Virus record (IMG/VR): IMGVR_UViG_2675903336_000010
Reading direction: 5' to 3' (one strand)
Source: a virus
Lineage: Duplodnaviria > Heunggongvirae > Uroviricota > Caudoviricetes
Length of the DNA stretch: 9,381 nt
Shown: positions 1 to 8,812 of the stretch, one piece after another
Layout of the letters: the number at the start of each line of letters is the position of its first letter
Position numbering within the stretch: the first letter of the stretch is position 1
Position numbers and translations under genes: made by a program
The notes under the pieces: generated by a model
Database searches by the model: none
Seen by the model: the letters and a program-made list of their open reading frames with translations, nothing else
What the model was told of the DNA's origin: nothing

Positions 1-83
1 AGGGACAGCTGATAGAAACAGAAGCCACTGGAGCACCTCAAAAACACCATCATACACTAAATCAGTAAGTTGGCAGCATCACC
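1..83 (-). mobile_element. IS1 left end (partial element, runs off the window): terminal inverted repeat plus the first 9 codons of insA
   Basis: Reverse complement of 61-83 is GGTGATGCTGCCAACTTACTGAT, which I recognise as the IS1 terminal inverted repeat. Reverse complement of 1-60 continues TTAGTGTATGATGGTGTTTTTGAGGTGCTCCAGTGGCTTCTGTTTCTATCAGCTGTCCCT, matching from memory the IS1 leader and insA start (GTG at 28..26, MASVSISCP...). The match ends at 83/84. Confidence 0.8.
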
Positions 84-235
84 CCGCCACAGAACAATTA
101 TTGCTTTTGCCGTTGATGACAATAAAGTTTTTATCGCAGGCGTATACCACGGTGGGCAAATCTATGAAACCGATTTTTTATCCAGTGCACCGTAAAACCC
201 CCATCCTTCAGGGCGTGGCGGATATCAAACTTTGG

Positions 236-1318
236 TCATTTTCTCTGGCTGATCTTTACCGGATAACCATCCCGAAGATCAATTAAGTGCTCCGGTTCAG
301 AAGCAAACCATGCATAAGATCCCCACGCCAATTCTGGTATTGCCTTTTTAAAAGGCAGAGCACTTCTGTCCATAAATGCCGTAAGGAATGCAAGATTTTT
401 CTCGCTGAACCCAGCGTCAATAGCCAAATGAGTGAGAGTAACTTTTCGTTCCCTGTTTATAGGCCCATCTGTCGCAACTACTTCAGTGAAAACTACAAGC
501 ATGTCCGAACCCGTTCGGTCCTCTCCCAAATCAATCAAAATAATATCTGGAAGTGCTTTTGAGGCATCAATATTCAGCCCCAATGCTTTTGCCAATACAT
601 CATCCTGAGCAACAACTTTATTCCCGGATTCAGACAACCAGAGCACAGTTGGATTCTTAAGAAAATTAGGAGCAAAAACTTCGATGACGGCCTTAGCTAT
701 TGTACTTGACGGGCCCGGAGCTAAAGTTCTCTTCTCTCCATTTGGGAAAGTGACGACTACGGCATCAGCAGCAATCACTGCCCCTGATTTCAATAAACGC
801 AACCTAGCAAGAGCGGCTTTGTTCAAATGATTTTCTTGCCAGGAACTTATTGCACTCAGCAGCGAATCTCCTTCAAGCCCGGCATCAAAGAGTGCTGCAA
901 AAGAGCGATTCAAACTGTAACGAGGACGAGAGGATGTGGTGGGTATACCTTTACGCTCAACAATTGCATTGCAAGGTATTAGGCCATTTTTTATAGTTTC
1001 ATCACGTATTGGCTCACGCGTATTTTCCGCATACCATGCATCAGCAGGCCTTATCTTTTGTTTAGAGAAAGTCATCTTTACCCAGCTTTCTCTGGACGCA
1101 TCATCAGTAAGAGCAGCCTGCGAATCTCCCATACTTACAACCTGGCTGGGCCTTATCCATCGCCCCAGCCCCTCAACCGCACCAGCATAAAACATGACAA
1201 AAATTGTTTTTGCAGCTATTTCCCGAATTAAATATCCACGATTCTCAGTCCCTTCAGGGAAAATTAATTGTAATCTTTCCCGGATAACATTCAATGGGGG
1301 AACAACAGGCAGATTCAT
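236..1318 (-). CDS. Putative type II restriction endonuclease (partner of the adjacent methyltransferase); family not assignable by eye, possibly BsuBI/PstI-like
   Basis: 360-aa ORF whose ATG overlaps the methyltransferase stop by 4 bp (ATGA at 1315-1318), implying translational coupling. C-terminal half has a PD...E-x-x-K-like arrangement (LPDIILIDL ... VVFTEVVATDGPINRERK). Region is AT-rich like the methyltransferase gene. No sequence search possible. Confidence 0.5.
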   Translation of the reverse strand: MNLPVVPPLNVIRERLQLIFPEGTENRGYLIREIAAKTIFVMFYAGAVEGLGRWIRPSQVVSMGDSQAALTDDASRESWVKMTFSKQKIRPADAWYAENTREPIRDETIKNGLIPCNAIVERKGIPTTSSRPRYSLNRSFAALFDAGLEGDSLLSAISSWQENHLNKAALARLRLLKSGAVIAADAVVVTFPNGEKRTLAPGPSSTIAKAVIEVFAPNFLKNPTVLWLSESGNKVVAQDDVLAKALGLNIDASKALPDIILIDLGEDRTGSDMLVVFTEVVATDGPINRERKVTLTHLAIDAGFSEKNLAFLTAFMDRSALPFKKAIPELAWGSYAWFASEPEHLIDLRDGYPVKISQRK

Positions 1319-3147
1319 GCAATCATCACTCCATAGAAACCAGCGATAGTTCTCTCAATAATCCGTCTGTGGACGCCAGCATCAATTAACGATTGAATCT
1401 CCATCACCTGCTCCAGAGAAGGCAACGGGATTGAATTCAATTCATAGGCCGAAACAGCAACACTTCCGCTTATACACCTGAACGCCCGATCGACAACATG
1501 CGAATTAAGTAGCATATCAATAACATCAGGGCGAACCGCAGAGAACAATCCGTTTGAATATACAATATTAATATGGTTTTCAACTACTACGCCACCAGTT
1601 TCATCTATAAATCCCTGAGGTAAAATTGCCGCTAAAATCCTTCTGTCCTGTTCCTTCGATGTTGTCCGCTGAACAAGCACACATTCAGATTTTGTCACAA
1701 GGAAACCCTGTTGTGGGGTTATATCGATATAGGGAACATGATTTTTTCTGTCTGCACTAAAACGAAAACCAGCTGAAGTTATTGATTCCGCCCAGACTAA
1801 TGGGTAGCTATTTTTTCCTTTCGTCGTACGCAACTGCGACTTAAATCGATTCCAGACTAACTGACCTGTAGAGACTGAGTATCCCAGATCAGCTAAACGC
1901 GTAGACATCTGTTTTAATACATTAAGAAAACAGGCATCATCTTTAACGCGTGGCAAAAGCCACGTTGCTCCACCTTTTTCTATATCAACATTACCTATTT
2001 TCTCAATTTTTGCTTTGTTCAACCCCTTAGGGACAAGTGAGGATACCTGGGCCCGAACTTTATGTTCTCCCGCCTTGAATGCTGTCAACATTGTTTCCTG
2101 GAGAACATCGTCAAAGACCCCATCCCTGTCAGTGACGAAATCAAGGGCATACGGAGTAGTTTTTTCGGTCAAAAGGGTTCGCAGCGCGGTGAAATACTGC
2201 CCACCAAGAAAAGAAGTTGGCGTAAGAAATGCAATAACTCCTGTTTTCTCTTTAACCATGCGAACAGCTAAGTCGGTGAACAATCCATATAGATTTGCAT
2301 GACCAAATAACGAACGAGAATATTTTTCTCTCGTTTTAATATCGAGAGTGACACGTCCGTAAGGCGGATTCCCTACCACAAGATCATAACCAGAAAATTT
2401 ATCTTGCTGAAGCGCATCAGCAACAATAATTGTATCTTCAGGCAATCTACGTTTTACCTTTACACATAGTGGCATTAGTACAGATTCGAGCAATACCAAA
2501 CTCATCCAAGCCGCAAATGGATCGATCTCTATCCCCTTTAAACGACGACTGATTCTCCTCAACATCCATTCAGGGGAAGACCCCTTGTCTTTTTTTAACA
2601 TTCGAATGGCTACTGGTGCCAAAAATGCACCGCCACCACACGCAGGATCAATAACCGATGCATGAGAAAAATCAACACCAGACTTTTCAGCCAGGTCCAA
2701 GAGACGCGCTACCAAAGGTGGGGGGGTATAGTAAGCCCCCAATTCCGAACGGTAAGCGGATGGCAGCATTACCGTATAAATTGACCCAATCAGATATCCA
2801 GCGTCCTCCGCCGGAAATTGAGCAATAAGCTCACCTGTTCGTTCAGCGAGCTCGCGTGCATCACATGGAATGTCTTCTATGTAAACAGTGTGCGGTACTG
2901 CCCTCATTTTAATGCTGCTTTTTTGCTTTTTTGCAAGGGTATCCCAATATGCAGCTACGATGCTGAAGCAGTATGAGCGGGCATGCATCAACCTTGACTG
3001 CCCGGTTTTGTAATTGCCCGCATAACCTTTGGCCATGGCTTTACAAGTTTGATATCTTTCCAGATTAGAAAACTCATTATCTGTAAAAAAATCAAAATGT
3101 TGCACATTCATAATGTAAAATCCTAATGTATCAAACATGCGGGCCAT
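1315..3147 (-). CDS. N6-adenine DNA methyltransferase, gamma class (motif order X-I-IV), with a long C-terminal putative target-recognition region
   Basis: 610-aa ORF. Motif X GAYYTPPPLVARLL (aa 137-150), motif I VIDPACGGGAFL (aa 165-176, verified at nt 2620-2649) and motif IV VVGNPPYG (aa 257-264, NPPY verified at nt 2359-2370). About 340 aa follow motif IV. Sampled 60-nt lines are about 30-45% GC versus about 57% in the phage core. Confidence 0.85.
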   Translation of the reverse strand: MARMFDTLGFYIMNVQHFDFFTDNEFSNLERYQTCKAMAKGYAGNYKTGQSRLMHARSYCFSIVAAYWDTLAKKQKSSIKMRAVPHTVYIEDIPCDARELAERTGELIAQFPAEDAGYLIGSIYTVMLPSAYRSELGAYYTPPPLVARLLDLAEKSGVDFSHASVIDPACGGGAFLAPVAIRMLKKDKGSSPEWMLRRISRRLKGIEIDPFAAWMSLVLLESVLMPLCVKVKRRLPEDTIIVADALQQDKFSGYDLVVGNPPYGRVTLDIKTREKYSRSLFGHANLYGLFTDLAVRMVKEKTGVIAFLTPTSFLGGQYFTALRTLLTEKTTPYALDFVTDRDGVFDDVLQETMLTAFKAGEHKVRAQVSSLVPKGLNKAKIEKIGNVDIEKGGATWLLPRVKDDACFLNVLKQMSTRLADLGYSVSTGQLVWNRFKSQLRTTKGKNSYPLVWAESITSAGFRFSADRKNHVPYIDITPQQGFLVTKSECVLVQRTTSKEQDRRILAAILPQGFIDETGGVVVENHINIVYSNGLFSAVRPDVIDMLLNSHVVDRAFRCISGSVAVSAYELNSIPLPSLEQVMEIQSLIDAGVHRRIIERTIAGFYGVMIA

Positions 3148-3361
3148 AACATCTCATGGTGGCGCATAGCAAACTGGCCCGAAGAATATCACGCACCAAG
3201 TCGATCTCATAACCCGTTATGACAATAAATCTTTGTAGCTGAACTCACTTGGTGATTTGTCAATCATTCCTGGCCTCCAGTTCGTCCTGAATCTCTTTAT
3301 CGAGTTCACCGTATTTGTTAGTCCTCATCACTCACGACTTGACTTCCAGAAATAACCTTGA

Positions 3362-3718
3362 TTATTCGGGGCTATATTTTGTCACCCTGCGTATCCGCGC
3401 TTTCGCATTACGCTCAATCTGGATTAGCTTTTCTATATTTTTTCGCCTTTCCCGCTCCTCCTGGCGCAAGAGCCTTACATCATCTGCCAGTCTGGTTTCT
3501 CTTTTCGCCACAGAGAGCATCCAGTCAAATGGCTCCACAACTGCACCGCAAATTTTACAGCGGACCTGACGCTCTTTTTCGTCAACCCGGACAGAAGCGT
3601 GATGGCAATATGGTCTTTCCGATGGCTCATAAAGAAAATTAACCTGATTACGAGGGTTATCCTCTTTTACCGGAAATAAAACAATATTGCTTAACTCATC
3701 TTCTGGTTTTATTTCCAT
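3362..3718 (-). CDS. Hypothetical protein, Cys/His-containing (C-x-H-H ... C-x-x-C) with a basic/acidic C-terminal tail
   Basis: ORF track extends to 3775 (GTG), but the ATG at 3718 is preceded by a strong SD (AAGGAGAGGAG). Translation MEIKPEDEL...CHHASVRVDEKERQVRCKICGAVVEPFDW...RLLRQEERERRKNIEKLIQIERNAKARIRR. Same strand and tight spacing with upstream genes. Confidence 0.55.
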   Translation of the reverse strand: MEIKPEDELSNIVLFPVKEDNPRNQVNFLYEPSERPYCHHASVRVDEKERQVRCKICGAVVEPFDWMLSVAKRETRLADDVRLLRQEERERRKNIEKLIQIERNAKARIRRVTKYSPE

Positions 3719-3775
3719 GCTCCTCTCCTTTGATGCGAATGCCAGCGGTAATTGAAGCCTGATAGCTAATTTCAC

Positions 3776-4198: not shown

Positions 4199-4213
4199 AA
4201 GCGCCCCCGGCAA

Positions 4214-4939
4214 TCACTTTTCCGACACAATACGACCGGAGGAATCGACAATCTGTCGAACAATATCCCGGTGCTTGTTCAGCTCCCGCAACGCGGCGCA
4301 GACACGCTCCCACTTCTGGACATGACTTTTCGCCCGACGCAGTTCGCGGTTTGCCATATGCAGCGATGGTAAAACCAGGTCATCCGCTTGCGTTTCGGTG
4401 AACGATGGCAACGACTGCACAATGTCCGCCACAGTTTCTGTTTTAATTTCTTCCTGTGTTGCAGCTTCCTGTACCGGTAACGCAACACCTGCTGGCTGAG
4501 GAAAGACTTTACCATCCGTTTCCGCTATGGATGCGGCTTTCGGCTCTGCCGGTAAATCAGCGCCCGGTATGCAGTACCGAAATTTACCGCCCTGATTCAC
4601 GCGAATCAGACGCCCTTTGCTGATTGCCATGGCCAGCGATGAATTCGCCCGGCGGGAGGTAATCCCGAACATCAGTGCCAGCTCATCCGCCGTTTGTGGG
4701 CCATGTTGTTCAATCGCCTCAGTCAGCATTTGCGCTGTCACTTTCGGTACCGGTGACACTGGTTCACTTTCACCAGCCTGAATCAGCCACCACATCGAAC
4801 CCTTGTTATCCGCTTCACCACGGCGCTTCAGTTTCCACAGTTCGTTGACCGCATCTTCACGGCTGATTCCAAGGCGGGACGCCACCACATGTGAAGAGGC
4901 TCTTTTCAGTGCTTTCAGTGCGTCAAATACAGTTTCCAT
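4214..4939 (-). CDS. Hypothetical protein with two tandem winged-helix-like segments
   Basis: ORF track start at 4957 is TTG; in-frame ATG at 4939 (METVFDALK...) is preceded by GGAGGA with 7-nt spacing. Two similar segments ([24 protein letters not shown] and [32 protein letters not shown]). Starts about 20 nt after the DnaC-like stop. Confidence 0.55.
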
Positions 4940-4960
4940 TAAAACATCCTCCAACAAAAA

Positions 4961-5445
4961 TTACTTCACAACTCCCGGAAAGCTGACATTTGAACGCCAG
5001 CTATCCCAGTTAAACGTCACCCACCGACAACCGTTCATGGTCATGCGGTCCATAATCCTCTCACCAAGAAGCGTGCTCATTGCGGCATGATTCAGGTTTG
5101 TTAACATCCCGACACTGCACAGTGATGCTGTCCGGCGATCAATTATCTGGTGCAATACCACCTGCTCGTTTTTCGTCTCCCGCTGAATGCCTATTTCATC
5201 CAGGACCAGCAAATCAACCCCGCAAAGCTCCTGTAAAAATTTTTCACCGGATTTGCCGTTGTCGTAGCTGTCATGCAACACGCTCATGACATCAGACTCG
5301 GTGACGATAATCACGCTGCGCCCCTTCGCCATCAGCCGGTTACCCATCGCCGCTGCAAGGTGATTTTTCCCGGTGCCGGTTTTACCGCTGAACACAAAAT
5401 TCGTGCACCCGGTCATCAGTTCGTCAGCTATGGATTTGGCCTGGC
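4961..5445 (-). CDS. DnaC-like helicase loader (lambda P analog / YdaV-like AAA+ ATPase), N-terminus lost in the assembly gap
   Basis: Walker A FVFSGKTGTGKNHLAAAMG and Walker B DLLVLDEIG. The frame stays open upstream of the first in-window Met (...QAKSIADELMTGC...) into the N-run, so the gene is truncated by the gap, not by a stop. Confidence 0.85.
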
Positions 5446-5705
5446 NNNNNNNNNNNNNNNNNNNNNNNNNNNNNNNNNNNNNNNNNNNNNNNNNNNNNNN
5501 NNNNNNNNNNNNNNNNNNNNNNNNNNNNNNNNNNNNNNNNNNNNNNNNNNNNNNNNNNNNNNNNNNNNNNNNNNNNNNNNNNNNNNNNNNNNNNNNNNNN
5601 NNNNNNNNNNNNNNNNNNNNNNNNNNNNNNNNNNNNNNNNNNNNNNNNNNNNNNNNNNNNNNNNNNNNNNNNNNNNNNNNNNNNNNNNNNNNNNNNNNNN
5701 NNNNN
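5446..5705. other. Assembly gap (260 N)
   Basis: Uninterrupted run of n from 5446 to 5705; true length and content unknown. Confidence 1.
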
Positions 5706-6507
5706 ATTTCTTCGGGTTTGCCCCGGCACGCAACGGGTATTCCCGCCAGACCTGTTCGAACACATCCGGATAATCCACTCGTCCCACAGGCTGCCCGGTG
5801 TTTTCCGGGGCTACCCGATCGGCTTCCCGCTGAATGGCGGAATCGGCTTCAGGCTGCTGCAGTTGGAGTGATTGCTCCGGCCTTGCGGTCATCACCTGCT
5901 GCACAGCGCCCGAATCGGCTTTCAGCGCATACGCTGAATCGGCTTCCGGTGTCGAGCCTGCTGGCTGACCAGGATTGACGGTCTGAACATCCCCTGCCTG
6001 GTTCGTGGCGTTTTTTACGCCATGGACCATAGTGTTTTGATCTTCTTTATCTGTATCTTTATCTGTATCTGTCGTGACTCGTCGTGACATGTGCGTGACA
6101 TTTCGTGACGCGCCGTGACAATCGCCATTTTGTTCCCGCTTTCTTTCCCTCTCTCGCTGCGCCCTCTTGCGCTCTGCAGGAGATTTTGCGGTTTGCGAAA
6201 TATTGCCGTTGTCCTCTTTAAGCACCTGGCGTTTTTCCCATCCAGTGATTAAATCACCATCAAGTACCCGCCCCTGCATCGTCTGCAAAATTGAATCAAT
6301 TACCTCTTCTGTCACGTCGAGCGCACTTGCCAAATCTTCTGTCGTGACATCAATGTGACCTCGCGTGACATTTCGTGACGCGCTCACCAGGAGGTGGATA
6401 TACACTGCCATCACTGTTGCAATTGGCTGCCCTGACACCCTGGCAATTGTTCGCCACTTAGGGTCATTTGGCATGTCATGCCATAATCTGAGCCAGGCGT
6501 TAGCCAT
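5706..6507 (-). CDS. Replication initiator / replisome organiser (lambda O analog, YdaU-like), C-terminus lost in the gap
   Basis: ORF track start 6513 is GTG; ATG at 6507 (MANAWLRLWHDMPNDPKWRTIARVSG...) has a GAGGTG SD upstream. Sits between the cII-analog and the DnaC-like gene, contains iteron arrays, and has a conserved-looking C-terminal start DYPDVFEQVWREYPLRAGANPKK before the gap. Confidence 0.7.
6073..6119. repeat. Iteron array 1: five direct copies of CGTGAC at about 10-11 bp spacing
   Basis: CGTGAC at 6073, 6083, 6094, 6104 and 6114 (gtCGTGACtc gtCGTGACat gtgCGTGACa tttCGTGACg cgcCGTGACa), helically phased, inside the initiator gene. Confidence 0.65.
6311..6379. repeat. Iteron array 2: CGTGAC at 6343, 6364 and 6374, variant TGTGAC at 6354, and an inverted copy GTCACG at 6311-6316
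   Basis: tgtCGTGACatcaaTGTGACctcgCGTGACatttCGTGACg. The 21-mer GCGTGACATTTCGTGACGCGC occurs in both arrays (6092-6112 and 6362-6382). Confidence 0.65.
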
Positions 6508-6578
6508 ACTCACCTCTTCTGATACCGAATCTTTTTACTCACGAGTTGCCGGGAGCGATTCGATATGGCTATTGTCAG

Positions 6579-7004
6579 TCAATGTACTGCCACAGCATTT
6601 CCTGCCGGGCCACCACGGTTCATCTGATTGAAACCGGCGATTGCCACTGCGACAAAATCATCAGCGTCTCTCACCAGTCGTTCATGCGTCTCCACCAGTT
6701 CCCGAAAATAAGCTGAACTGTGGCTGCGCATTCGAGCCACCAGCGGAGGTGGCATTGCCCTTTCGATCGCAGGTAACAACGCCTGAATTTTTTCAACAGC
6801 GTCAGGGGTGTCTTTATCCAGCCAACGGAAAATCTTTTGGGTGTTGAGATAAAGCGTGTTGTGCTTGCTGTCGTTATGCAGAACCGGAAACGTCATTCCC
6901 AGTTCGAAATAAACCCTGGTTATTTCAGCTGCCGGAACTTTTTCACCGTCCGGATGCGCCCAGGCTTTCATCGCCATGCGGATGTGTTCATGCTTGATTT
7001 TCAT
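6579..7004 (-). CDS. ydaT: YdaT-like protein (Rac-type functional analog of lambda CII)
   Basis: 141-aa ORF starting MKIKHEHI..., which I recall as the N-terminus of Rac prophage YdaT. Its ATG overlaps the upstream cro-like stop (ATGA at 7001-7004). Confidence 0.65.
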   Translation of the reverse strand: MKIKHEHIRMAMKAWAHPDGEKVPAAEITRVYFELGMTFPVLHNDSKHNTLYLNTQKIFRWLDKDTPDAVEKIQALLPAIERAMPPPLVARMRSHSSAYFRELVETHERLVRDADDFVAVAIAGFNQMNRGGPAGNAVAVH

Positions 7005-7264
7005 GAATCAACCCCCGCCGATGGTTGTGTGTTAGCCTGAAACTCAGCAGGCAAGCCGTCAGTTGGGTTGGGGTAGGTTTTACTGTCAATCTCATGTGGG
7101 GTCACCACCCATCCCGTTGCTTCACACCAACGTAATATTTTTTCTCCTGTAAGTTTTGCACGCCCCGTTATAACGTGGCTGACCATCCCTTGGGATGCGC
7201 CAACAATCTCAGCAAATGAACTCTGGGTTATATGAAAATGATGCAAATATTCTCCAAGATTCAT
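7001..7264 (-). CDS. Cro-like HTH regulator (YdaS-like, XRE family)
   Basis: ORF track start 7291 is TTG; in-frame ATG at 7264 (MNLGEYLHHFHITQSSFAEIVGASQGMVSHVITGRAKLTGEKILRWCEATGW...) has an AGGG SD upstream. HTH signature SQGMVSHVITG. Divergent from the repressor across an operator-containing intergenic region. Confidence 0.7.
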   Translation of the reverse strand: MNLGEYLHHFHITQSSFAEIVGASQGMVSHVITGRAKLTGEKILRWCEATGWVVTPHEIDSKTYPNPTDGLPAEFQANTQPSAGVDS

Positions 7265-7341: not shown

Positions 7342-7375
7342 CAAAGTGATTAGCAATCTTATTAGAATTGGATGT

Positions 7376-7876
7376 ATGAAAAGAAAATCATTGTCAGACA
7401 CCGACCTCAACGCCGCCAGAAGACTGAAAGAAATCTGGATGGCAAAGAAATCTCAGTTGGGATTGACTCAGGAACGTGCGGCGGAAATTATGGGGTTTTC
7501 AACACAAGGGGCGGTAAGTCACTACCTAAATGGTCAAACCCCACTAAACCTTGAGGCTGTTCTAAAGTTTGCTGGCTTACTGAAAGTTCCCCCTGAGTCA
7601 ATCAGGCCAGACATGGTAGATTTGCTGCAAATTGCAAGGATGTATTGTCGAGAACCACAGCAAGATAACATAGTCGCATTACCAGCAGACACAGAACAAA
7701 CAGAGGATGAACTACCGTTTGCCGTAGAGCCGATGGAACGAGATTTAATCCATACGTTCAGAGCTTTTCCGAAAGAAGATCAAGAACACATGCTTCAGGA
7801 GATGAAAGATAAAAAAGAATCAATGGATCGTACGGTTGCGCGGTGGTTAGCTGCACAAAAAGGCCGTCGCGCCTAA
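7376..7876 (+). CDS. Prophage repressor, RacR/PaaR-like XRE-family HTH protein with no LexA-like peptidase domain
   Basis: ORF track start 7346 is GTG; first ATG at 7376 (MKRKSLSDTDLNAARRLKEIWMAKKSQLGLTQERAAEIMGFSTQGAVSHYLNG...). Classic cI/XRE HTH (LTQERAAEIMGFSTQGAVSHYLNG). Divergent from the cro-like gene. C-terminal half lacks any G-x-S-M/Ser-Lys autocleavage signature. Confidence 0.75.
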   Translation: MKRKSLSDTDLNAARRLKEIWMAKKSQLGLTQERAAEIMGFSTQGAVSHYLNGQTPLNLEAVLKFAGLLKVPPESIRPDMVDLLQIARMYCREPQQDNIVALPADTEQTEDELPFAVEPMERDLIHTFRAFPKEDQEHMLQEMKDKKESMDRTVARWLAAQKGRRA

Positions 7877-7895
7877 ATCAGAGGAGATATGTAAA

Positions 7896-8090
7896 ATGAG
7901 TACAGTCCTTTCCCCAATGGTTTCAGAATTTGAGACAGTTGAGCAAGAAAATAGTTACAACGAATGGCTGCGGGCCAAAGTAGCAGCAAGCCTCGCGGAT
8001 CCCCGCCCGGCGATTCCGCATGATGAGGTAATGGCGGAAATGGAACAAATTATTGCCCAAATTGCTGCTGCAACTCACAGAGGTGAATAA
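7896..8090 (+). CDS. Small acidic antitoxin of a ParE-family type II toxin-antitoxin pair (PaaA2/ParD-like)
   Basis: 64-aa ORF with GAGGAG SD 9 nt upstream of the ATG. Stop overlaps the toxin start (TAATG at 8088-8092). Sits 19 nt downstream of the repressor stop. Confidence 0.65.
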   Translation: MSTVLSPMVSEFETVEQENSYNEWLRAKVAASLADPRPAIPHDEVMAEMEQIIAQIAAATHRGE

Positions 8091-8380
8091 TGTTACCCGT
8101 TTTATGGCTACCATCTGCTCGTGATGATTTGCGCCAGATCGTAGCCTACATAGCTAAAGAAAATCCCGCGGCAGCACGCAGAATGAAAATTCGAATTGAA
8201 ACATCCGTTTTGCCGCTCACAGAGCATCCTTACCTGTATCCTCCAAGCGAGCGAGTTCTTGGTCTTCGTGAAATTGTAACTCATCCTAACTACATCATCC
8301 TTTACCGAGTAACAGCATCAAGCATAGAAGTAGTAAATATTGTGCATTCTCGAAGACAGTATCCAGGCAAAAACAGTTAA
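8090..8380 (+). CDS. parE: ParE/RelE-superfamily toxin
   Basis: 96-aa ORF with the typical ParE pattern: MLPVLWLPSARDDLRQIVAYIAKENPAAARRM...GLREIVTHPNYIILYRVTASSIEVVNIVHSRRQYP. Translationally coupled to the upstream antitoxin. Confidence 0.8.
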   Translation: MLPVLWLPSARDDLRQIVAYIAKENPAAARRMKIRIETSVLPLTEHPYLYPPSERVLGLREIVTHPNYIILYRVTASSIEVVNIVHSRRQYPGKNS

Positions 8381-8480: not shown

Positions 8481-8659
8481 TTCAGGCGTCAACCCACCCC
8501 GCCCCACAGAATGCAGGGCAATACTTCGAGTTACCAGACAGTGGTCAGGGGTTAAGTAGCCAGCCCGAGGCGTAAGAACATGACGGCAGGGTTCAATCTT
8601 TAACTATGCAGCAGGTTTTTTGTTCCGCCACCCCGGCGTTAAGGGGAAATGAGGTCAGC

Positions 8660-8812
8660 ATGGATACTATCGATCTTGGCAACAACGAATCTCTGGTGTG
8701 CGGCGTGTTCCCTAACCAGGATGGAACGTTTACCGCCATGACGTATACCAAAAGCAAAACGTTTAAAACCGAATCTGGCGCGCGTTGCTGGTTAGCCAGA
8801 AACACTGACTGA
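8660..8812 (+). CDS. Small hypothetical protein (50 aa), first gene of the leftward early transcript
   Basis: ATG at 8660 (MDTIDLGNNESLVCGVFPNQDGTFTAMTYTKSKTFKTESGARCWLARNTD) with GAGG SD 5 nt upstream. The longer track ORF from 8606 lacks an SD. Confidence 0.45.
   Translation: MDTIDLGNNESLVCGVFPNQDGTFTAMTYTKSKTFKTESGARCWLARNTD

Follow-up and report, generated by a model that had tools for sequence, protein, structure and literature searches.

A BsuBI/PstI-family restriction-modification cassette, probable nin-region cargo of the Qin-locus prophage of Shigella sonnei

What is the two-gene unit lying next to an IS1 end in this viral record, how did it come to lie there, and does it still act in the cell that carries it? 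The window, that is, the whole stretch of 9,381 nucleotides that was analysed (IMG/VR record IMGVR_UViG_2675903336_000010), has two overlapping open reading frames called on its minus strand, at 1315-3147 (610 aa) and 236-1318 (360 aa), hereafter M and R. Very probably, the two belong to the BsuBI/PstI family and make up a classical Type II (IIP-like) restriction-modification (R-M) module; as a compact cassette, M followed by R, it would have entered the variable slot that the S. sonnei Qin-locus lambdoid prophage has in its nin region. It is an ordinary two-gene R-M system, annotated before and already known, with no new biology implied: both proteins are identical to S. sonnei core proteins (WP_000113425.1 and WP_001053102.1), whose RefSeq names already say methylase and PstI/BsuBI-type endonuclease. 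The features of the locus are as follows:

1..83, minus strand: left terminal 83 bp of IS1, with the inverted repeat and the beginning of insA, which reads out of the window; GGTGATGCTGCC...
85..195, plus strand: 3' remnant of a parE toxin gene (last 36 codons and stop), convergent with the pair and cut by IS1 at codon 67
236..1318, minus strand: R gene, 360 aa, BsuBI/PstI-family type II restriction endonuclease
1315..1318, minus strand: 4-nt ATGA overlap of M stop and R start, with GGAG, within M, 10 nt ahead of the R start codon
1315..3111, minus strand: M gene, gamma-class N6-adenine DNA methyltransferase, 598 aa if read from Met13
3112..3262, minus strand: leader or upstream segment that travels with the cassette, from alignment to relatives
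3362..3775, minus strand: gene of a zinc-ribbon-like hypothetical protein, a flanking conserved prophage gene that marks the backbone boundary

The earlier note had proposed an Eco57I-type methyltransferase paired with a BsuBI/PstI-type endonuclease, and Pfam, PDB sequence and PADLOC matches agree on this. The C-terminal half of R, which it had described as nuclease-like, corresponds to the nuclease domain BsuBI_PstI_RE (PF06616; 9.3e-45, 152.2 bits, residues 188-349), so that the Pfam family matched is a nuclease family and not another one. Ahead of it lies BsuBI_PstI_RE_N (PF17728; 1.2e-30, 106.6 bits, residues 10-172); both matches pass the Pfam cut-off of 27 bits and stand in N-to-C order. 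R thus has an N-terminal HTH/recognition domain (residues ~10-172) and a C-terminal PD-(D/E)XK-type nuclease domain (~188-349). PADLOC holds full-length models for exactly this subfamily, REase_II (PDLC03589) and MTase_II (PDLC03338), which match R and M over their full lengths with 426 and 992 bits, respectively. Models dedicated to the subfamily suggest that one of its members has been catalogued and may have been characterised. In NCBIfam, no model was found for R.

The nuclease core of R consists of P257-D258, E279-x-V281 and G285-P286. Across 40 homologues, P257, D258, E279, V281, G285 and R291 never vary and P286 hardly does; all of these residues are common to the related enzyme of Stx2 phages. 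The N-domain motif W-YA-xx-(T/S)RE-xx-R is also common to the Stx2-phage enzyme and, from YA onwards, to SdaI. At the position of the lysine in the EAVK motif of SdaI, the 360-aa subfamily has Ala and the Stx2-phage enzyme has Thr. Since the latter is active, the SdaI lysine does not define the family. SdaI (2ixs) is found with R by sequence search of the PDB (E 1.8e-16), and it is the sole PDB match of the R model in Foldseek at E <= 0.001 (2.6e-14, prob 1.00). The TM score is just 0.39-0.44, because the relative placement of the domains differs and the R model has a pLDDT of 76.

In M, Pfam finds Eco57I (1.7e-13) and N6_Mtase (2.1e-9). Motif I (DPACGGGAF, residue 155, window 2649-2623) lies upstream of motif IV (NPPY, residue 248, window 2370-2359), a YYTPPP motif is also present, and about 270 aa follow the catalytic domain. 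Motif I before motif IV, followed by this C-terminal region, indicates the gamma-class order that had been claimed for M. The length of the C-terminal region had been thought to hint at an unusual recognition sequence. This idea does not stand: the region is the usual target-recognition domain, and the AF2 model of M (pLDDT 87.7) aligns over its full length with CamA, M.BseCI and M.TaqI. Moreover, Stx2 phages have a 489-aa CTGCAG methylase whose C-terminal part is equally long; the additional ~120 aa of M lie at the N-terminal end. An unusual site is therefore not to be expected on grounds of C-terminal length. As judged from the sequence, the 610-aa start, at ATG 3147, is probably 12 codons too long. 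The likely start is the conserved Met13, whose ATG (3111-3109) has AGGA 9 nt upstream and which gives 598 aa, the length of most M homologues among the matches listed. In Kluyvera, the distance between the two ATGs includes a 1-nt gap, so that the upstream ATG is not in frame with M.

The arrangement of the genes is that of a Type II system, M and R being adjacent, co-oriented and co-occurring across genomes. M adjoins R in every fetched context where the upstream neighbour of R was visible. Translational coupling, already stated in the earlier note, is suggested by the ATGA shared by M stop and R start, a junction that the homologues from Kluyvera, C. sedlakii and Serratia also have. Both genes are under strong purifying selection (dN/dS 0.055-0.062, at dS > 1). 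The interval from the flanking prophage gene to M contains no ORF, and the layout is accordingly not of the type controlled by a C protein. The Burkholderia copy is the only one in which a 78-aa ORF, with a weak HTH match scoring under the Pfam cut-off, precedes M.

The protein families suggest how such a pair would work. M, a monomer using AdoMet, would N6-methylate one adenine per strand of a short palindromic site. R would bind the same site via its N-terminal winged-helix domain, and its C-terminal PD-(D/E)XK domain would cut unmethylated DNA, thereby restricting incoming phage or plasmid DNA. With the M-R order and the ATGA overlap, translation of R would depend on earlier translation of M, so that in a cell newly entered by the cassette, modification would come before restriction; a controller (C) protein would play no part. 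Because loss of M would be lethal while R persists, the pair would also act as an addiction module for the DNA carrying it.

How the pair reached the prophage is best seen from its relatives. As the earlier note had assumed, it occupies the nin region: an intact E. coli relative has the pair after the replication genes and ahead of DUF968-RusA-Q. Lambdoid prophages of Kluyvera and Citrobacter likewise have the module in their nin region. In four lambdoid prophages, it follows the replication genes, precedes RusA/DUF968 and is co-oriented with the early-right operon, Q being annotated in the E. coli copy. Sister prophages fill the nin slot with DUF7167, Ea22, DUF551 or hok genes. Elsewhere, the module occurs in a Serratia P2-like prophage, in a Burkholderia chromosome and on Burkholderia plasmids. 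The cassette is absent from some otherwise syntenic prophages and has sharp homology boundaries, as expected of cargo (a moron): one border is exactly the R stop codon, the other lies ~100-150 bp upstream of M, and homology to other Rac/Qin-type prophage backbones starts at window ~3358-3376. These alignments support the view that the pair is separately acquired cargo in the lambdoid nin-region slot.

Base composition had been put forward for the same conclusion, with the replication and immunity genes set at about 57% GC. The pair (43.6%; 10th-90th percentile of its 60-nt lines, 36-51%) is indeed below the replication genes, modestly. However, the latter reach 51-54% and not 57%, and in AT content the pair is matched by the immunity genes (44.6% GC in the cI-like gene, 46.7% in the cro-like one). 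The contrast is better seen with GC3 (0.36-0.37 in the pair, 0.51-0.64 in the replication genes). Because the immunity genes have a similar GC content, composition is weak evidence of foreign origin; separate acquisition is supported by synteny instead.

The cassette is rare in E. coli (2 of 5426 complete genomes). A search of 50,697 phage records gave no long-form member, only Stx-phage enzymes with 25-28% identity. In S. sonnei, each protein is exactly present on at least 1000 contigs, and a survey counted 982 type II systems in 994 genomes of this species (PMC13293514). Essentially every S. sonnei genome seems to carry this pair as its sole type II R-M system.

The present position of the pair, next to IS1, has another origin. 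Window positions 1-83 match the IS1 copies of phage P1 and other records with 100% identity, and this IS1 end is 152 bp from the R stop codon, in keeping with the ~150 bp first estimated. Translated, the remnant beyond it is identical to the C-terminal end of ParE (103 aa) from E. coli FDAARGOS_943; parD and the remainder of parE are absent beside IS1. In S. sonnei genomes, a full IS1 stands at the corresponding place, directly followed by the chromosomal genes ydfI-ydfZ-ydfH-ydfG-dcp. IS1 would have inserted in the adjoining parE, and an associated deletion would have taken parD, Q and the lysis and structural genes, so that the dead prophage would now end with the R-M pair and be joined to chromosomal ydfI. 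The earlier note had placed the pair at the distal end of the operon; this position results only from the IS1-associated deletion of everything beyond the pair. IS1 was also considered as the vehicle of the cassette and was rejected, the intact E. coli relative having the cassette without IS1.

Is the pair expressed? Conservation of the leader starts at ~3216 in the comparison with C. sedlakii and at ~3262 in that with Kluyvera. A scan of 3112..3262, upstream of M, gave no convincing sigma-70 promoter, and no terminator was found by scan between the upstream gene and M on the same strand. A 7-bp palindrome (TCATAAC GG GTTATGA, ~3222-3207) upstream of M was discarded as an operator, as it is not kept in C. 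sedlakii. A cI/DicA-like repressor gene and a cro-like gene remain in the window. Since the pair lies in a repressor-controlled early-right operon, its expression in the lysogen is only putative.

This raises the question of whether the pair is a silent relic, its genes intact and unexpressed in S. sonnei and now giving neither methylation nor restriction, because it lacks its own promoter and sits in an early-right operon that is repressed, in a prophage that is dead. The lack of a promoter-like site between the upstream gene and M and the retention of the repressor and cro-like genes would fit this reading. S. sonnei is a young, recent clone, which leaves little time for decay; intact genes there are therefore no proof of current function. 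In addition, in one S. sonnei assembly (GCA_040189005.1), the loss of 1 nt from a C7 run (window 2721-2727) splits M while R is intact, a state that would be tolerated if R were silent. However, the deletion falls in a homopolymer and neighbouring genes are truncated too, which is typical of sequencing error, and the M-R sequence is near-uniform in the four complete S. sonnei genomes compared. Furthermore, the ~100-150 bp of conserved leader move with the cassette between unrelated phages, which suggests that it has its own signals, and the module occurs on Burkholderia plasmids and in a Burkholderia chromosome around which no phage genes were called. Silence of the pair is, on balance, unlikely. 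Phase variation through the C7 run of M was likewise dismissed, the tract not being kept in the Kluyvera, C. sedlakii and Burkholderia copies.

The lack of a terminator-like site ahead of M, together with co-orientation of the module in the early-right operon, after the replication genes, in four lambdoid prophages, could also point to a function in the lytic cycle. The pair would then be expressed mainly from pR after infection or induction, methylating progeny DNA and cutting competing or host DNA, rather than protecting the lysogen. The PstI-type system of Stx2 phages, placed just downstream of cI in the same orientation, provides a contrast in this respect. Nevertheless, the module also resides in a P2-like cargo slot, a chromosome and plasmids, where there is no such operon, and a transiently expressed R-M pair would endanger the unmodified host chromosome. 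A lytic role is therefore highly improbable, and a Type II module carried as cargo is the reading retained here.

Identity to enzymes of known specificity is merely 22-28%, so CTGCAG, or a site containing a CTGCAG core, is a default guess for the recognition sequence. In the literature on the recognition sequence or methylome of the 598/360-aa subfamily or of S. sonnei, only the short-form PstI, EcoGIII and Psy9853I systems were found. The widespread long-form subfamily (598-aa M, 360-aa R) is 60-89% identical across Enterobacterales, Burkholderia, Pseudomonas and Vibrio. A more speculative proposal, which we regard as rather doubtful, is that this subfamily is not a PstI isoschizomer and reads a different or extended sequence, and that its post-segregational killing bounded the IS1-mediated deletion in S. 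sonnei. Such a limit would explain why the deletion stops so close to R. The specificity of the pair would bear on transformation efficiency, phage susceptibility and plasmid uptake in S. sonnei, an important pathogen, and on phage therapy design. Beyond this bookkeeping, the importance of the locus is small; it offers a tidy example of a compact R-M cassette moving among unrelated temperate-phage backbones, plasmids and chromosomes.

Among known systems, the EcoGIII-type system of the Stx2 phages of E. coli O104:H4 and O145:H28 (CTGCAG) is among the closest to the S. sonnei pair. It is prophage-borne, has M then R with a 4-nt overlap (M 858-2327 and R 2324-3277 in locus L014) and combines a gamma N6A methylase with a BsuBI/PstI-family nuclease, sharing the core and N-domain motif. 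Its R is reported to be biochemically active, with CTGCAG specificity shown by experiment (PMC3893438). However, identity to the S. sonnei proteins is 26% for M and 25-28% for R, its M and R are shorter, with 489 and 317 aa where those of S. sonnei have 598 and 360, and the genes sit just downstream of cI in the immunity region, not in the nin region. With these identities, lengths and prophage slots, the pair is not an EcoGIII orthologue. SdaI (PDB 2ixs; CCTGCAGG), the only solved relative of R (22% identity), has the same two-domain layout, with an N-terminal winged-helix and a C-terminal nuclease domain, reportedly described by Tamulaitiene et al. in 2006; it recognises an 8-bp site and has the EAVK lysine where R has Ala. 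On the M side, the modelled fold matches CamA (577 aa), M.BseCI and M.TaqI over the full length (TM about 0.55-0.6 over ~590-620 aligned columns for CamA and M.BseCI), the catalytic Rossmann domain coming first and the target-recognition domain lying at the C-terminus. These enzymes are 13-19% identical to M and differ in recognition sequence, and CamA is an orphan methylase whereas M is paired with a nuclease. Finally, the module occupies both kinds of prophage defence slot, the lambdoid nin region and the P2-like gpA-portal slot, and the cargo found there is a plain Type II R-M pair, not a newly described defence system.

The earlier note read two adjacent frames as a methyltransferase/endonuclease pair, and domain searches bear this out. 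The genes are co-oriented and overlap at an ATGA, as they also do in the Kluyvera, Citrobacter sedlakii and Serratia copies:

236-1318, minus strand: R, the endonuclease ORF, 360 aa
1315-3147, minus strand: M, the methyltransferase ORF in its long reading, 610 aa

M matches the Pfam Eco57I methylase (1.7e-13) and N6_Mtase (2.1e-9) domains, and its motifs run from YYTPPP through motif I (DPACGGGAF) and motif IV (NPPY) to a long C-terminal domain, which corresponds to a gamma-class arrangement. R, for which only a nuclease-like half had been described, matches both BsuBI/PstI endonuclease domains (1.2e-30 and 9.3e-45), as well as SdaI, its sole solved relative, by sequence (1.8e-16) and by fold (2.6e-14), and thus belongs to a nuclease family.

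The RefSeq-style start of M, the ATG at 3147, adds the segment 3112-3147 (minus strand) and has a poor Shine-Dalgarno motif. Met13 (ATG at 3111) is taken here as the probable family-wide start, because most M homologues listed are 598 aa long, because the Kluyvera copy has a 1-nt gap between the candidate ATGs, with the upstream one falling out of frame, and because AGGA lies 9 nt 5' of Met13. The AF2 model of M (pLDDT 87.7, pTM 0.85) gives end-to-end alignments with CamA, M.BseCI and M.TaqI. Residues 248-584 of M align with 126-465 of the 489-aa Stx2-phage methylase; hence the parts following the catalytic motifs are of equal length, and the approximately 120 residues that the phage enzyme lacks are N-terminal in M. 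The suggestion that a long C-terminal region may reflect an unusual recognition sequence is not supported, and it misread the domain architecture.

Each of the two proteins exactly matches a Shigella sonnei protein that is found on at least 1000 contigs; the names given to them are "BsuBI/PstI family type II restriction endonuclease" and "N-6 DNA methylase / HsdM family methyltransferase"; their RefSeq annotation is correct. A complete S. sonnei genome has the identical sequence over 236-3400. In complete genomes of this species, the order is dicB, DUF1391, a three-gene HTH/antitoxin/ParE block, cro-like, ydaT, O-like, DnaC-like, DUF1627, DUF977, a hypothetical gene, M, R and IS1, directly followed by chromosomal ydfI-ydfZ-ydfH-ydfG-dcp. 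This locus is a Qin-locus prophage remnant without Q, lysis genes and all structural genes. In a published survey, type II systems numbered 982 in 994 S. sonnei genomes, and the R-M content of the species was called highly uniform (PMC13293514). Among complete E. coli genomes, only 2 of 5426 carry the pair. One E. coli copy, in FDAARGOS_943 (99.9% DNA identity), is free of IS1 and shows the ancestral arrangement: M-R is followed by a parDE pair convergent with R, a hypothetical gene, DUF968, RusA, Q, tRNAs, lysis and head genes. IS1 truncated the prophage, and the window begins with the following features:

1-83: left end of IS1; 152 bp separate it from the R stop codon, in line with the distance of about 150 bp first estimated
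85-195, plus strand: 3' remnant of parE (last 36 codons), cut by IS1 at codon 67

The intact parE of FDAARGOS_943 is the source of the latter match; in the window, parD and the 5' portion of this parE have been lost. This is a second parE, distinct from the toxin gene of the three-gene block. The block itself (7346-8380, plus strand) adjoins the immunity region and comprises:

within 7346-8380, plus strand: HTH regulator, 176 aa, HTH_3 with a weak DicA-like C-terminus
within 7346-8380, plus strand: RelB/PaaA2-type antitoxin, 64 aa
within 7346-8380, plus strand: ParE/RelE-type toxin, 96 aa, overlapping the antitoxin stop

Since the block resembles three-component paaR-paaA-parE modules known from prophages of E. 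coli, what is called the "cI-like repressor" may be the toxin-antitoxin regulator, or double as it. Elsewhere, 260 N (masked or unresolved, 5446-5705) lie inside the O-like replication gene, toward the DnaC/IstB-like gene, and ORF calls spanning them are artefacts.

Base composition had been advanced as a sign of separate acquisition. The computed values depart from those first estimated: the pair has 43.6% GC (GC3 0.36-0.37), a real but modest contrast with the replication genes (51-54%; GC3 0.51-0.64) that is absent against the immunity genes (cI-like 44.6%, cro-like 46.7%; GC3 0.40), so that the claim was overstated. All enterobacterial copies are at 41-44% GC, the Burkholderia copy at 56-59%. 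It is comparative evidence, rather than GC, that shows M-R to be a mobile cassette, and on this ground the cargo reading holds. Other Rac/Qin-type prophages are homologous only from approximately 3358-3376 onwards, where the hypothetical gene upstream of M ends, and in these prophages the slot before DUF968-RusA-Q carries DUF7167, Ea22-like, DUF551 and hok instead. The 598-aa M and 360-aa R module is found in the nin region of Kluyvera and C. sedlakii lambdoid prophages, where its neighbours differ, and also on a Burkholderia chromosome and on B. glumae and B. pyrrocinia plasmids. In Serratia marcescens (AP028506.1, locus positions 4208-7083; 68% and 75% identity), it belongs to another phage backbone, a P2-like prophage in which it is inserted between gpA, a replication gene, and the portal gene; the ORF after it encodes 211 aa and has no Pfam match. 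Among enterobacterial copies, nucleotide conservation extends from approximately 100-150 bp upstream of M to exactly the R stop codon.

Comparison with the Kluyvera and C. sedlakii copies gives a dN/dS of 0.055-0.062 for M and R (dS >1), and such values show purifying selection on both coding sequences. The pair is located in the early-right operon, no promoter-like site was found upstream of M, and expression in the lysogen is uncertain. A perfect 7-bp inverted repeat (TCATAAC-GG-GTTATGA, 3207-3222, minus strand), approximately 100 bp 5' of the M start, is kept in Kluyvera and not in C. sedlakii. In one S. sonnei assembly (GCA_040189005.1, locus positions ~8610-8718), a 1-nt deletion in a C7 run (window 2721-2727, codons T-P-P of YYTPPP) splits M into 133- and 428-aa ORFs and leaves R intact. 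If real, the deletion would argue that R is silent; it is probably a homopolymer sequencing error, since ydaT and the O-like gene are also shortened there. It can be proposed that M methylates N6-adenine in a palindromic site, that R would cleave unmodified DNA at this site, and that translational coupling would allow M to be made before R without a C protein, the pair serving both host defence and addiction to the carrier DNA. In Burkholderia cepacia, M is preceded at a distance of 4 nt by a 78-aa ORF (locus positions 4965-5201) whose match to HTH_3 is weak and below threshold; this possible controller protein is missing from the prophage copies in enterobacteria.

Residues P257, D258, E279, V281, G285 and R291 of R are invariant in 40 homologues and P286 nearly so. 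All seven are present in the Stx2-phage enzyme, the gene of which was reported to have biochemical activity on CTGCAG (PMC3893438). At the position of the SdaI Lys (EAVK), R has Ala and the Stx2-phage enzyme Thr; this Lys is therefore not family-defining. In the literature searched, no paper gave a recognition sequence for the long form (598-aa M with 360-aa R). A CTGCAG-core site may be guessed for R, mainly, and weakly, because its N-domain motif W-YA-xx-(T/S)RE-xx-R is common to the CTGCAG-specific Stx2-phage enzyme and, from YA onwards, to SdaI, which recognises CCTGCAGG. The published CTGCAG systems EcoGIII, the RM13514 system and Psy9853I (spanning only 2.4 kb) are, unlike M-R, of the short form. 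Precisely the long-form subfamily is covered by full-length models of its own in PADLOC-DB: MTase_II PDLC03338 matches M with 992 bits (1-596 of 598) and REase_II PDLC03589 matches R with 426 bits, whereas the distinct short PstI-type models reach only 170 and 97 bits. M-R is an ordinary Type II R-M cassette that the prophage carries as cargo; it has already been catalogued, and its annotation in public databases is correct.
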